From NCBI GenBank assembly GCA_965197585.1, contig OZ240215.1:1184001-1248000 (forward strand): a stretch of 64,000 nt of DNA, in the 5' to 3' direction. Under the pieces are notes generated by a model. That model saw nothing but the letters and a program-made list of their open reading frames with translations. It was not told the origin of the DNA and ran no database searches. This document shows, one piece after another, positions 1,610-58,995 of the stretch. Position 1 is the stretch's first letter. Each line of letters opens with the position of its first letter. The translations under genes and the position numbers were made by a program. Source of the DNA: Dehalococcoidia bacterium (GTDB lineage: Bacteria; Chloroflexota; Dehalococcoidia; Plut-88900).

Positions 1610-1677
1610 GGGGGGTGTCCCCTACGGGGGAAGGGACTGGACCTCACCCCTGCGCAACCACGAGAGTTTGCCCCTAC
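1610..1677 (-). repeat. Two GTAG-family REP-like palindromes (family D), one interrupted by IS1182
   Basis: Minus strand GTAGGGGCAAACTCTCGTGGTTGC (1654-1677) and GTAGGGGACACCCCCC (1610-1625). Plus-strand relatives at 24352-24374, 27899-27923, 40315-40337. Confidence 0.7.
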
Positions 1678-1747
1678 AGGAAAGGGCGCTGAAGGCCATT
1701 GATGGGTCTGGCAATGGTCTCACAAAGGGGGAGGTGCTTAGAGAGAC

Positions 1748-2419
1748 TCAGGTTCGTATCATGATGCCGCCGTCAATGAAGACGGGTTCGCCAGTGGTGA
1801 AGGCGCAGGAGTCGGAGGCGAGGTAGACGAGGGTGCCAGCGAGGTCCTGAGGCCTGCCCCAGCGCTGCATGGGAACGTAGCGGCGGATTTTGTCGGGGAG
1901 TGCGTCATCAGAGTCGACGATCCAGCCGCCGACGATGGCATTGACGCGGATGTTGTCTCGGGCCCACTCGAGACCAAGGGCGCGGGTGAGGTGGATGACT
2001 CCAGCCTGGGCCGCGGAGAAGGCGCTCTGATTGACCACCACGCGGGCTCCGAGGCCCGAGGCGATGTTTACTATACGTCCCCGCTGCTGTGCCAGCATGT
2101 GGCTAGCGACTGCTTTGCAGGAGAGGAACACCGAGTCCAGGTTCAGGTCTATGGCGGCGCACCATTCGTCATAGGTCATATCGGCGAGGGGTTTGGCGAA
2201 GTCTGAGGCGAGGTCGTTGACGAGAATGTCTATGCCACCGAGATCAGATATGGCATTAGAGACGGCGGCTTCGAGGCCGTCCGTGCCGCCGGGCCAGGAG
2301 ATAGTGGCGAGGGTTGCGCCGGCATTGGTAAGTGCGCCTGCGAGAGCCGGGGCATTGATGCCGCCGCGTGTTACGAGGACTGCGTTTCTGCCCTTGAGAT
2401 TGAAGGGAGCGGGGGACAT
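1748..2419 (-). CDS. SDR-family protein with degenerate catalytic motifs (probable pseudo-enzyme)
   Basis: SDR scaffold (GGIDILVN, GRIVNIAS, NIRVNAI, TGEPVFIDGG), but no TGxxxGxG, NNAG is NDLA and YxxxK is FSAAQ. ATG lies 1 nt after the upstream stop. Confidence 0.85.
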   Translation of the reverse strand: MSPAPFNLKGRNAVLVTRGGINAPALAGALTNAGATLATISWPGGTDGLEAAVSNAISDLGGIDILVNDLASDFAKPLADMTYDEWCAAIDLNLDSVFLSCKAVASHMLAQQRGRIVNIASGLGARVVVNQSAFSAAQAGVIHLTRALGLEWARDNIRVNAIVGGWIVDSDDALPDKIRRYVPMQRWGRPQDLAGTLVYLASDSCAFTTGEPVFIDGGIMIRT

Positions 2420-2420
2420 G

Positions 2421-3233
2421 TCAGGCCTCCGGGTTCGGGGTGAGGGGCTGGTAGCCCCAGGGAGCGTACGCGCCGATGAGAGCGGCGCCATCGACCATGA
2501 TGTTCTCGCCGGTCATGTAGGATGAGGCGTCGGAGCAGAGAAGGAGGACGAGGTCGACGAGGTCCTTGGCGGTGGCGACAAAGCCGACGGGTATAAAGCG
2601 GTGCCCCCGCTCCTCAATGGGCTTTTCCATGTCCTCGGGGAGGGTGTGGAAAAGGCCGGGAACGATGCAGTTCACGTTGACGTTGTCTCGGGCCCACTGC
2701 ATGGCGAGAACCCGGGTGAGCTGGATGACACCGGCCTTGGCGACGCCGTACATGACCTGGCCGCGTTGAGTGCCGTAGCCGAACCCTGAAGAGACGTTGA
2801 CGATCTTTCCATACTGTTGGCCGACCATGTGCTGGCCAGCGGCGCGGGCACAGAAGAAGGAGCCGGTCAGCTCGCCGTCGATGCCTCGGTGCCAGACCTC
2901 GTCTGTGATCTCCCAGACGGCTTTCTCAGGATCATCTGCGCCGGATATGCCGGCGTTGTTGACGAGGATGTCGATGCGGCCGAACTCGGAGACGGTGCGC
3001 TCGACAAGGGAGTCGACCTTTTTGGAGTCGGTGACGTCGGTGGAGACGGCGATGGCTCTGCCGCCAGCGTTCAGGATGGTGTCGACCGTCTCCTGAATGG
3101 GTCCGGGTCTTCGGCCTGCGGCAACAACGTCGGCGCCGAGCTTGGCAAGGGCCACGGCGACCTCTCTACCGAGGCCGGAGCCTCCGCCCGTTACAAGAGC
3201 CACGCGTCCTGAAAAATCGTATGCGTCCGTCAT
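2421..3233 (-). CDS. Classical SDR oxidoreductase
   Basis: TGGGSGLG, NNAG, catalytic Ser and YGVAK all intact. Confidence 0.93.
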   Translation of the reverse strand: MTDAYDFSGRVALVTGGGSGLGREVAVALAKLGADVVAAGRRPGPIQETVDTILNAGGRAIAVSTDVTDSKKVDSLVERTVSEFGRIDILVNNAGISGADDPEKAVWEITDEVWHRGIDGELTGSFFCARAAGQHMVGQQYGKIVNVSSGFGYGTQRGQVMYGVAKAGVIQLTRVLAMQWARDNVNVNCIVPGLFHTLPEDMEKPIEERGHRFIPVGFVATAKDLVDLVLLLCSDASSYMTGENIMVDGAALIGAYAPWGYQPLTPNPEA

Positions 3234-3269
3234 ATTGTGACCAGTGTGGAAGAGATTGGGTTGCGGCCT

Positions 3270-57490: not shown

Positions 57491-57568
57491 GGTGGGGACG
57501 CTCGTGCTGTCGCAGATCCGCCGAGGTGGGAGCCCGTCGAAGTATGAGCGGGAGGCCAGGGTCTGCCC

Positions 57569-58489
57569 TCAAGCCCCGTCTCTCGTTTCTAACTCCACCC
57601 CCGACACCCGCGCCCAATAATTCACCGACTCAACCAGGTCCTTGTGCCCCAGCCCCGCCACCCGAGCCATCTGGTATAGCTGCACGCCCAGGTCGTTGAT
57701 GGGGGTGGGCACCCCTTCCTCCCTGCTCCATTCGCTGGTCAGCTTCAAGTCCTTGTACTGCAGATCTACCGAGAATCCCGGTTCGAAATCACCCCGCTCG
57801 ATTCTCGGCCGGACGTAATTCTGCATGAAATAGCAGTCAGCATCCGTCTCATCGAACACATCCATAAGGGTCTTGGCATCTATGCCCACCGCCGCCCCGA
57901 GAGCAAACGCCTCCGCCGAGATCAAGTTGACCATCCCACTAACGAAGTTGCTCAGCAGTTTCACCTTCGTCCCCGTCCCCGCCTCCCCCAGAAAGAAAAA
58001 CTTCTCGCCAAGAGCTTCCATCACAGGTCTTGCCCTTTCGAACGCCTCCCGATCCCCGCTCACCATGAAGGTTACGTTGGCCGCCTTTGCCCCGTCCGTC
58101 CCCGCCCCACCCGGCTGCCCCCCGCTTATTGGAGAGTCTAGGTAGTCCACACCTCGCTCCTTCGCCCGAGCGTGCATGTCAATCGCCGTCTTCGGATCGA
58201 TGGTGCTCAGGTCTACGATGACCGTCCCAAGCCGGGCCCCCTCTAACAAGCCATCCTTCCCATCTACCGCCGTCCTCACCGCCTCTGGGTTCGGCAGCGC
58301 CAGCAACACCACCTCCGACAACCTCGCCAAGTCCGCCCCACTCTCGGAAGCAAGAACCCCCAGCTTCTCTACTCCCGTCATCCGCTCCCGAACGCTGTCA
58401 TACACGTAGATCGGCCCGAAAGCCCTTGTCAGGTTGGCAGCGTATATCCGCCCGATAACTCCCAGCCCTACCAGTCCTATCTTTGGCAT
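57569..58489 (-). CDS. NAD(P)-dependent beta-hydroxyacid dehydrogenase (3-hydroxyisobutyrate / tartronate semialdehyde reductase family)
   Basis: GLGVIG, DLSTI, DSPISGG, KLLSN, FSVDLQYKDL. Confidence 0.88.
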   Translation of the reverse strand: MPKIGLVGLGVIGRIYAANLTRAFGPIYVYDSVRERMTGVEKLGVLASESGADLARLSEVVLLALPNPEAVRTAVDGKDGLLEGARLGTVIVDLSTIDPKTAIDMHARAKERGVDYLDSPISGGQPGGAGTDGAKAANVTFMVSGDREAFERARPVMEALGEKFFFLGEAGTGTKVKLLSNFVSGMVNLISAEAFALGAAVGIDAKTLMDVFDETDADCYFMQNYVRPRIERGDFEPGFSVDLQYKDLKLTSEWSREEGVPTPINDLGVQLYQMARVAGLGHKDLVESVNYWARVSGVELETRDGA

Positions 58490-58739
58490 CGTTTCACCTC
58501 TCCAGCAAAAGCCCGCATTTTTCTTCCCGTGTGAAACCCTTGAATAACCGTCATTCCCGCTCCCGAGTCGGCCTCCTTATCCCCACGGGCGGGGCATTCC
58601 GTTCGCCCTGCCTAAGATGCTGCAAGTGCTTCTTTGGCGTGCGCCGAGGCGTGAGCAGAGTCGAAGCCTTTCCTGAGGCTCCCGAAGGGTATCCCAAGAA
58701 TTGAATGATGTGCGAGCGTTCCATCCCCTCTCCCTTGAT

Positions 58740-58871
58740 GAGATCTTTGTCTAACCTCCCGCGGTGGGGCCGGGGCCGCTCGTGCTGAGGCTCTCGAAGT
58801 ATGAGCGGGGGGTGGAGGTCACGTGATCTGGACAGTACTGCAGAAGCAACCTGTAGTTGTGCAAAGGTCTC
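58740..58871 (+). mobile_element. MITE-like TIR element in a family C palindrome
   Basis: GAGATCTTTGTCTAAC...GTTGTGCAAAGGTCTC flanked by TTGAT/TTGAC. Family B copy at 58776-58808. Confidence 0.72.
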
Positions 58872-58995
58872 TTGACGGGAGAGGGCTAGGGTCCAAGACT
58901 CGCTGAGGAGAACGACGGTGAATTCTACAAAGCCACTCACGCACCTTATGTAACGAAGCTCCTCCCGGACCCACCCATCGACGCATTATGTCGAA

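Follow-up and report, generated by a model that had tools for sequence, protein, structure and literature searches.

How repetitive extragenic palindromic (REP) repeats spread is a long-standing question, chiefly for the CGTC-tagged class with no known transposase, and it is raised anew by a 64,000-nucleotide stretch of the Dehalococcoidia bacterium contig OZ240215.1 (assembly GCA_965197585.1, positions 1,184,001 to 1,248,000), which is called the window below. The spacers between its genes contain at least six families of REP-like hairpin modules (A to F), nested in and beside each other, on a chromosome of the Dehalococcoidia class of Chloroflexota with unusually strong GC skew. Why do these families all read in one direction, and why do they turn round where the skew changes sign? 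A first-pass annotation of the window had claimed that every repeat right of about position 6750 is oriented alike, that the copies to its left are reversed, and that the skew flips at the same place. Our analysis bears out all three statements and extends them to related genomes. Each family keeps one strand relative to the sign of the skew, with the strand that reads tag first lying on the C-rich strand, a rule obeyed within the window, wherever the skew switches (three independent cases), and in both of two replichore-like domains in relatives.

The families were defined by reading the spacers and with a repeat finder. Family A is a REP hairpin tagged with CGTC or TGTC (GTCATTCC...GGAATC). 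The tag core GTC at the 5' end was the selection criterion for 65 distinct copies, in which the preceding base is C in 25 and T in 40; the CGTC subtype takes the forms ATTCCCGT-GAAA-ACGGGAAT-CCA and ATTCCGGC-CCCCGA-GCCGGAAT-CCA, and the TGTC subtype has a perfect stem of only 5 bp with a loop of 12 nt. Family B is the hairpin CCCTCTCCC-TTGAC-GGGAGAGGG followed by a G-run tail, CTAGGGTGAGGGTGA. Family C is the hairpin GGCCGCTCGTGCTG-loop-TCGAAGTATGAGCGGGG, also written CCGCTCGTGCTGAG...TCGAAGTATGAGCGG, and family D is a GTAG-tagged REP hairpin with GTAG 5' of the hairpin on the + strand at 24352, 27899, and 40315 and on the - strand at 1667. Family E is an insert of 21-28 nt found within B and within C, and family F is CATTCCGYTCGCCCTG. 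A long hairpin labeled the 'TIR element' has arms that extend the B stem (…ACCTTTGCATAAC / GTTACGCAAAGGT…) and an interior made of A or C. Its arms lie on both strands by definition, and its orientation was taken from the interior (family C).

Motif searches right of 6750 place every genuine intergenic copy of the six families on the + strand: seven of A, eight left and seven right ends of C, five of E, three of F, three of D, and eight left ends of B, whose matches on the - strand are the palindromic arm of the same hairpins. An eighth match to the A expression (47451-47520, - strand) is a long spurious span. When all window spacers were compared with each other by blastn, 66 non-self high-scoring segment pairs were returned. 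Where both members lie right of 6750, 57 pairs are on the same strand and 4 on opposite strands; where the pair spans 6750, none is on the same strand and 5 are opposite. One of the four opposite pairs is the terminal inverted repeat of an insertion sequence (IS) (38992-39009 / 40010-40027), and the other three are short matches of 13-14 nt, C/G-rich among those looked at. To the left of 6750, reversed copies lie at 1654-1677, 5749-5765, ~6240, 6608-6623, and ~6640-6696, and the repeat finder, the reading of spacers, blastn, and the motif searches agree on the reversal of the copies that had been named before. Counted by spacer, oriented repeats occupy 17 spacers right of 6750, all forward, and 2 left of it, all reversed.

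The skew changes sign at the same point. In the window, which has a G+C content of 61%, the skew of the + strand runs from +0.14 to +0.23 at 2000-7000 and then from -0.07 to -0.30 from ~7000 to 64000, and the joint change of skew and repeat polarity can be placed at 6697-6756, just downstream of purS (6756-7010, - strand, identified from its translation and not by Pfam). Right of 6750 the skew is -0.167 in + genes (30,942 bp), -0.204 in - genes (19,820 bp), and -0.153 in spacers (6,788 bp). Third codon positions show the strongest values (-0.42 in + genes and +0.25 in - genes, each read on the coding strand). The skew is strand-wide and holds whatever the gene direction.

Does the rule reach beyond one window? 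Relatives were gathered by scanning contigs with a 15-mer of family C, which gave at least 122 loci, 80 of them with 10-kb flanks (cited below by L numbers). Many single seed matches in unrelated phyla are due to chance; repeated matches are those to long-read assemblies labeled 'Dehalococcoidia bacterium' and to JAEUSP01, an assembly of 56% GC. Identity with the window is 92-94% for CBDFLQ010000007.1 (176-232 kb, reverse strand) and ~91% for CBDCTF010000007.1 (1.37-1.39 Mb). The orientation test covered the window and 29 Dehalococcoidia loci from 9 assemblies, ~0.5 Mb in all, de-duplicated by contig coordinate. For each motif match, the orientation was compared with the GC skew over the +/-3 kb around it, and counts are expressed as concordant:discordant:weak-skew. 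Family A scored 52:1:12 (binomial p = 1e-14), B-left 45:2:3, B-right 23:0:3, C-left 49:0:5, C-right 50:2:9, E 26:1:5, and F 15:1:4; D, the rarest family and statistically the weakest in polarity, scored 10:3 (binomial p = 0.09), and the G module scored 2:1. Orientation follows skew in the relatives as well, the binomial p values of A, B, C, E, and F lying between 5e-4 and 4e-15. Restricted to intergenic matches, the concordant:discordant counts become 45:2 for B-left, 21:0 for B-right, 47:0 for C-left, 49:0 for C-right, 26:0 for E, and 14:0 for F, and control motifs with their letters reversed found almost no matches. The discordant matches are chance matches within genes or the palindromic arm of B, those of D in the relatives being isolated 11-mers, and a single genuine exception to the rule is a C element at L052:8745-8779.

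The larger picture is the same. On the 3.45-Mb contig CBDCTF010000007.1 the seed motif lies on the - strand at 0.44 and 1.37-1.47 Mb, on the + strand at 1.68-2.96 Mb, and on the - strand again at 3.40 Mb, and the sign of the skew matches the seed orientation in each stretch; the contig thus shows two replichore-like domains. Local switches behave likewise. Where the skew of L030 switches at ~3.1-4.3 kb, 8 repeats on the + strand give way to 14 on the - strand with an IS between them, and at the switch of L075 at ~16 kb, 2 on the + strand give way to 3 on the - strand. Loci of skewed genomes in which the local skew is weak stay coherent nonetheless (L029, 18 on +; L045, 6 on -; L007, 5 on -). 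Copies in the two no-skew genomes are unpolarized. In JAEUSP01 the C core, bordered on both sides by CCACCGAAC, occurs on both strands within single loci (L005-L058), and in OZ242329.1 (L008) A hairpins read +, -, -, - within ~450 bp.

Could transcription set the orientation, with the repeats acting as stabilizers of 3' untranslated regions, terminators, or small RNAs aligned with the upstream gene? Gene context was assigned from calls by a model of codon usage, for which Pfam-confirmed genes of the window served as the training set and which recovered 45 of 52 curated stops. Copies are indeed overrepresented downstream of genes and underrepresented in divergent spacers, the latter being usual for REPs: by gene context (R, repeat), A copies number 35 in >R>, 14 in >R<, 7 in <R<, and 5 in <R>, with 10 B-left copies in <R<, against a background of 96 >R>, 32 >R<, and 46 <R> spacers. 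However, copies occur in all four contexts with an orientation that tracks the skew. In each family 7-10 copies (3 for B-right and F) are flanked by two genes that both lie on the strand opposite to the repeat and still follow it, discordance in spacers is essentially zero, and the repeats at window 58517-58921 read + between two - genes. Transcription direction, which the annotation had named as an alternative account, is thus contradicted as the cause, and we consider it very improbable. Drift in base composition was also rejected, as B and C are G-rich by our own motif count yet lie on the C-rich strand. So was hairpin stability: neither strand of A, B, or D folds better than the other, and only in C does the forward strand have the advantage, in 31 of 34 copies with DNA parameters and in 34 of 34 with RNA parameters.

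A second alternative does away with any sensing of replication. Local multiplication by tandem duplication, slippage, or gene conversion would keep the orientation of a copy, and inversions would flip repeats and skew together, so that the polarity would be passively inherited. Tandem arrays do exist: four tandem 94-bp family C units stand at L060:7319-7615, where the window counterpart (26657-26876) has a single, different module set. All three local flips are step-like, the flip in L030 adjoins an IS, and the window's reversed segment lies ~5 kb from an IS, as rearrangement would give. Yet both chromosome domains are filled, in opposite orientations, by one set of families whose cores are near-identical and which at least 8 assemblies have in common, so copies must pass from one replichore to the other and yet come to lie in the right orientation. 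The rule also holds for stand-alone copies at a distance from other repeats. Passive inheritance seems to us rather unlikely.

Rearrangement nevertheless offers a good account of the flip itself. The switch at 6750 is probably an edge or breakpoint of a small IS-associated rearranged segment that carries its own skew and repeats, and not a terminus. In the closest of the relatives gathered, synteny with window 10.4-64 kb stops shortly after an ABC-transporter gene, at a reciprocal switch; next to it comes a 4-kb segment with an IS fragment at one end and an IS at the other, and the reversed segment of the window is itself flanked by an IS at 39-1544. If the flip is such an edge, the joint change of repeats and skew within the window is trivial, as an inversion carries both signals, and the genome-wide coherence is not. 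The alternative that 6750 marks the replication terminus (or origin) of the chromosome draws on the change from + to - skew, the sign expected at a terminus, and on the syntenic region of CBDCTF010000007.1, which lies within ~0.1-0.3 Mb of that contig's + to - switch. Against it stand the two IS-linked observations just given, the lack of a DnaA-box cluster (12 one-mismatch matches in 64 kb versus 6.8 expected, none of them in 5618-6755), and the frequency of local switches in relatives, with two clear cases in 29 loci (L030 and L075) and no dnaA nearby. We regard a terminus or origin at this point as quite unlikely. Two specific candidates were rejected along the way: a dif site, the AT-rich palindrome at ~6515-6540 being part of a multi-copy element described below, and an origin, given the missing DnaA-box cluster and the lack of dnaA beside the - to + switches in L030 and L075.

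How do these repeats compare with known systems? Family A corresponds by sequence to the published CGTC-tagged REPs, as family D does to those tagged with GTAG. In Di Nocera et al. (2013), CGTC-tagged REPs are described as mostly head-to-head dimers for which no transposase was found, with an unpaired terminal tag of CGTC (or TGTC/CCTC), an 8-9-bp stem starting with A-T pairs, a loop of 4-5 nt, and a 3-nt tail near CCA; in the available text of that paper the phyla listed for CGTC repeats exclude Chloroflexi, GTAG REPs are reported in Chloroflexi, no replication polarity is reported, and the words leading and lagging are absent (PMC3733652). Family A resembles the repeats so described in its unpaired CGTC/TGTC tag, in being intergenic and mostly downstream of genes, and in having no dedicated transposase, here among the sampled proteins; its CGTC subtype also agrees in its stem of ~8 bp from AT, its short loop (e.g., GAAA), and its CCA/CAT-like tail, and its TGTC subtype has the shorter stem and longer loop given above. 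It differs in that its copies are singletons or nested and essentially of one orientation per replichore, and in that many loops measure 6-12 nt. Head-to-head A dimers were not seen in the skewed genomes, where A occurs as singletons in one orientation, and mixed orientations were seen only in OZ242329.1 (L008). Family D has the GTAG tag followed by a hairpin, as in GTAG-tagged REPs, and departs from the REPIN-RAYT system in that the window contains no inverted D pairs (REPINs); no RAYT gene turned up in the ~0.5 Mb sampled. For IS200/IS605 elements, replication-oriented insertion through single-stranded DNA at the fork has been described (PMC3971601, PMC3333891, PMC6006769), with an orientation bias of IS families that was significant in 20-35% of the chromosomes tested (PMC3971601), and the palindromes of PATEs serve as insertion sites for small repeats in Haloquadratum (PMC3119063). 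As far as these sources describe them, our repeats share with IS200/IS605 and PATEs a hairpin basis with no terminal inverted repeats, an orientation bias relative to replication, and nesting like that in Haloquadratum, and they differ from IS200/IS605 in a bias near 100% over several families and in a strand that appears opposite to that of IS608 under the usual rule for the leading strand. Nor did the sampled proteins include a tnpA or tnpB product, a further difference from IS200/IS605. KOPS and Chi are polar 8-mers spread through genes with an orientation tied to replication direction, unlike our repeats, which are hairpins of 25-200 nt, almost all intergenic, and high in copy number. We found no report of replichore-polarized REP families in the literature searched, subscription-only papers lying outside its coverage.

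What, then, sets the polarity? The first-pass annotation had proposed spread by a replication-coupled mechanism on single-stranded DNA, and the link to replication stands as the natural reading of a polarity that is real, tracks the skew in relatives, and is independent of transcription; the enzyme that the proposal called for was not found among the sampled proteins, and the strand appears opposite to that of IS608 under the usual rule. Taken as a whole, gain of copies in a strand-specific manner linked to the fork, with the 6750 flip as a rearrangement edge, is the best explanation, and we give it about an even chance of being right. Polarity would be fixed at the gain of copies. Single-stranded DNA at the replication fork would be the substrate of a strand-specific process that writes or copies hairpins into one strand only, with HUH-type cutting and joining or the annealing of a single-stranded copy as candidates, and insertions would often fall in the loops of pre-existing hairpins. 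The same extreme replication asymmetry that lies behind the strong skew could make such a process nearly absolute.

Several observations weigh against fork-linked gain. The single polarity of many unrelated families could equally stem from selection after insertion, and the tandem arrays of L060 speak for some local amplification. No conserved target site or target duplication appears in the flanks of the 65 distinct A copies, which are C-rich with no fixed 4-5-mer, 'ATCC' being frequent on both sides of the CGTC subtype. Elements derived from IS200/IS605 insert 3' of a fixed tetra- or pentanucleotide and leave no target duplication. Comparison of orthologous spacers gave no clean pair of empty and filled sites. 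The loci of the relatives were all seeded on family C, several of them are orthologous to the window, and ~0.5 Mb was sampled. The choice of strand poses a further difficulty. The usual rule, assumed for this chromosome, is that the leading strand is G-rich, and rpoB/rpoC, secA, clpB, dnaJ, alaS, and a 4-tRNA cluster do lie on the G-rich strand, but core genes are mixed overall, with valS, rplS, def, and dnaX on the C-rich strand. Genes from the crude caller number 228 on the C-rich and 152 on the G-rich strand, a count not trusted as a guide to the leading strand as the caller was trained on window genes, and our own tally of Pfam-confirmed genes in the relatives is close to even between strands. 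If the leading strand is G-rich, the tag-first strand has the sequence of the lagging strand and lies on the leading-strand template. That placement is opposite to the IS608 model, in which, as far as the cited texts go, the active strand lies on the lagging-strand template (PMC3333891, PMC3971601), and for C the tag-first strand is also the better-folding one.

The search for an enzyme is the last of these points. The annotation had suggested looking for RAYT/TnpA-Y1, GIY-YIG, or DUF559 genes flanked by the repeats. No Y1/HUH enzyme (RAYT, IS200) or other candidate was found in 150 window open reading frames (ORFs) or 260 proteins of the relatives, and no GIY-YIG or DUF559 gene is listed among them, in a sample of ~0.5 Mb out of roughly 30 Mb, which is not large enough to rule out a gene present as a single copy. 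The relatives have 411 predicted genes, of which 118 were scanned, followed by 128 of 132 selected ones and 14 more; the other 4 of the 132 were L075 ORFs already scanned, and among the 278 remaining genes from which the selection was made, 122 were skipped as similar to scanned proteins and 24 fell outside 90-450 aa. The transposases seen were of the DDE (IS5/IS1182-like), rve, and IS110 types, together with a group II intron reverse transcriptase.

The main competitor to fork-linked gain is that selection maintains a polar function. Hairpins and the B G-run tail would then serve as oriented chromosome signals in fork progression, gap formation, topology, or segregation, and wrongly oriented copies would be lost after insertion. 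A constraint at the level of the host would economically explain why many structurally unrelated families share one polarity, and it agrees with the lack of polarity in the two no-skew genomes. In the B tail, GGGAGAGGGCTAGGGTGAGGG, four runs of G make up a motif in competition with the hairpin, and a precedent exists in the RRS elements of E. coli, described as GC-rich replication signals that bear a G-quadruplex (G4) motif and act in an orientation-dependent manner tied to replication direction (PMC10592627). The G-run tail of B lies on the C-rich strand. More generally, G4-type motifs (four runs of G3+) in the window and 29 loci lie on the other, G-rich strand in 206 cases and on the C-rich strand in 43, a bias that arises because C-tracts fill the spacers. 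Copy number is far above that of known polar signals, and the two strands of A, B, and D do not differ in folding. The turnover of copies also speaks against selection. Orthologous spacers of genomes that are 92-94% identical differ in their module sets, always in the polarity of the block, and at one orthologous site (window 49880-50035) a composite element in the window corresponds to a plain B hairpin in L036 and to an empty site in L030. Spacer content turns over fast, so no individual copy is conserved. We hold selection for a polar function to be doubtful as the main cause. More specific forms of these ideas are bolder still: either hairpin modules are written into one strand in a fork-coupled way with no classical transposase, one option being that single-stranded copies anneal at the lagging strand and nest into existing hairpin loops, or the repeats form a new class of high-copy polar signals for replication or segregation, and we think it unlikely that this pair of proposals holds the answer.

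The individual copies in the window illustrate both the nesting and the polarity. On the - strand, 1610-1677 contains a reversed GTAG-type REP of family D (1654-1677) and reversed pre-B-hairpin sequence (1626-1650), with inverted matches at 27899-27922 (92%) and 20384-20408 (88%). A reversed family A (CGTC-tagged REP) hairpin with matches in relatives follows at 6236-6266, and the last reversed repeats before the flip, at 6575-6696, are a reversed F (6608-6623) and a reversed A-type hairpin with a long loop insert (~6636-6696). The copies right of 6750 read on the + strand. A simple B hairpin (CCCTCTCCC / GGGAGAGGG) with its G-run tail stands at 20384-20431, and 21708-21885 combines an A hairpin (21708-21733) with a B hairpin bearing a 21-nt insert E (21844-21862). 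The composite 'TIR element' at 23335-23531 has a B-left/T-left arm, a C hairpin (23385-23420), and a T-right/B-right arm. Family D occupies 24352-24380; 26689-26860 holds a C left end with insert E, an A hairpin (26738-26761), and a T-right/B-right arm; and 27899-28142 holds D (27899-27922) and two A hairpins (27976-28001 and 28117-28142). At 30127-30251 a B-left/T-left arm and an A-like hairpin precede an F (30203-30218) that runs into the start of an MFS gene, and at 33230-33304 an F (33246-33261) is joined by a AAGATGGAACATCCGCC module (33265-33281). The A hairpin at 36353-36378 is of the TGTC subtype and has a conserved extension of ~25 nt on its 3' side. Between these last two sites, a tandem array at 35523-35677 made of six overlapping 50-nt copies with a 21-bp period, within a possible ORF (35448-35765), is unrelated to the 21-nt family E inserts; a small basic ORF lies just upstream (35025-35414).

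Further to the right, a B-left/T-left arm and an A hairpin at 38941-40064 are split by a 1,056-bp IS (38982-40037) with one rve-type transposase ORF (Pfam rve/rve_3) and 18-nt terminal inverted repeats. This IS sits inside the 5' arm of the A hairpin with ATTCC repeated on both sides, and it seems to target REP hairpins. The cluster at 40118-40556 comprises a T-right/B-right arm, a T-left arm with A (40277-40302), D (40315-40340), and a composite with C and E (40418-40475). Two A hairpins and a C hairpin lie at 48435-48557, a composite element lies at 49880-50035, and a simple B hairpin at 52391-52440 has the tail GGGAGAGGGCTAGGGTGAGGGTGA with a G-quadruplex-type motif. At 56119-56302 a C hairpin that overlaps the 3' end of a GNAT ORF is followed by a T-right arm and the right half of B with insert E, and at 57496-57552 a C hairpin with insert E stands alone between convergent genes. 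The cluster already cited for its two - strand neighbors, 58517-58921, joins a T-left arm, an A-like hairpin, and F (58595-58610) to a full composite (58714-58921).

Database searches returned little for these modules. The whole window gave no match to Rfam 15 at the gathering score, none of families B, C, E, and F corresponds to an Rfam entry, and a search of 40000-40640 in E-value mode gave a single chance-level match (E = 6.2). No relative of the composite element was found in a plasmid collection, and the core sequence of family C was not found in the literature searched. The core hairpin of C (CCGYTCRTRCTGAG...TCGAAGTATGAGCGG, with a variable apical insert) does occur in assemblies labeled Gammaproteobacteria, Armatimonadota, Methylococcaceae, and Sideroxydans and in other Chloroflexota (loci L035, L080, L081, L093, L095, L105, and L109). 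Such wide conservation suggests that a conserved protein may recognize it.

Beside the flip lies a different kind of repeat, a multi-copy noncoding element of ~0.6-0.9 kb (5647-6578, + strand), within which the reversed module at 5749-5765 is found. Two conserved blocks, closed by a 12-bp helix (GGCGATGGAAGA / TCTTCCATCGCC), surround a variable middle. A strict regular expression recovered only 2 copies and was replaced by nhmmer, which gave 8 full copies and 1 partial copy, the G-rich version being on the G-rich strand in 9 of 9. The others are at L078:7045-7631, L024:17416-18140, and L045:187-884 and in L073, L074, L075, L076, and L113. RNAalifold predicts helices rich in invariant G-U pairs with compensatory changes in 6 of 40 pairs, a search of 5500-6900 against Rfam at E <= 1 gave no match, and the L078 copy stands directly upstream of the 4-tRNA cluster on the same strand. 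On this modeling, the element may be a new structured RNA. An IS110-family transposase (L045:1166-2125) adjoins the L045 copy.

The gene content around the repeats is unremarkable. Pfam searches of the 150 longest window ORFs returned ordinary housekeeping and catabolic genes on both strands (among them pur genes, guaA, pgk, tpiA, miaA, dapF, amidohydrolases, and a hydantoinase) and two ISs, with a DDE/DUF772 transposase at 39-1544 and an rve-type transposase at 39046-40008. A search of the window found no tRNA genes. Five luciferase-like monooxygenase genes stand in tandem at 47521-53623, the last four being clear paralogues with a spacing of 1.1-1.4 kb. The gene purD is split across two reading frames at 10377-11659, with the break near residues GGMGCYSP, by either a true frameshift or an indel error of the assembly. 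An hflX-like frame (20480-21661) is open from at least 20480 and yet has no ATG, GTG, or TTG before 21173, so this gene may have an unusual start codon or a sequence error. In the relatives, a strongly skewed region is interrupted by the group II intron reverse transcriptase at L040:13427-15253.

The replication-coupled reading is the best available, its mechanism being one that we infer, and a near-absolute polarity tied to the replichore over several families narrows the possible mechanisms to strand-specific events at the fork. Repeat orientation could also be put to use, marking replichores, inversions, and misassemblies in metagenome-assembled genomes; in L029, L045, and L007 the repeats are coherent where the skew is too weak to read. 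If hairpin modules are written in a fork-coupled way, the spread of 'orphan' REPs, the CGTC class among them, would be accounted for, and the polarity of the repeats would be a sharper record of replication direction than GC skew.

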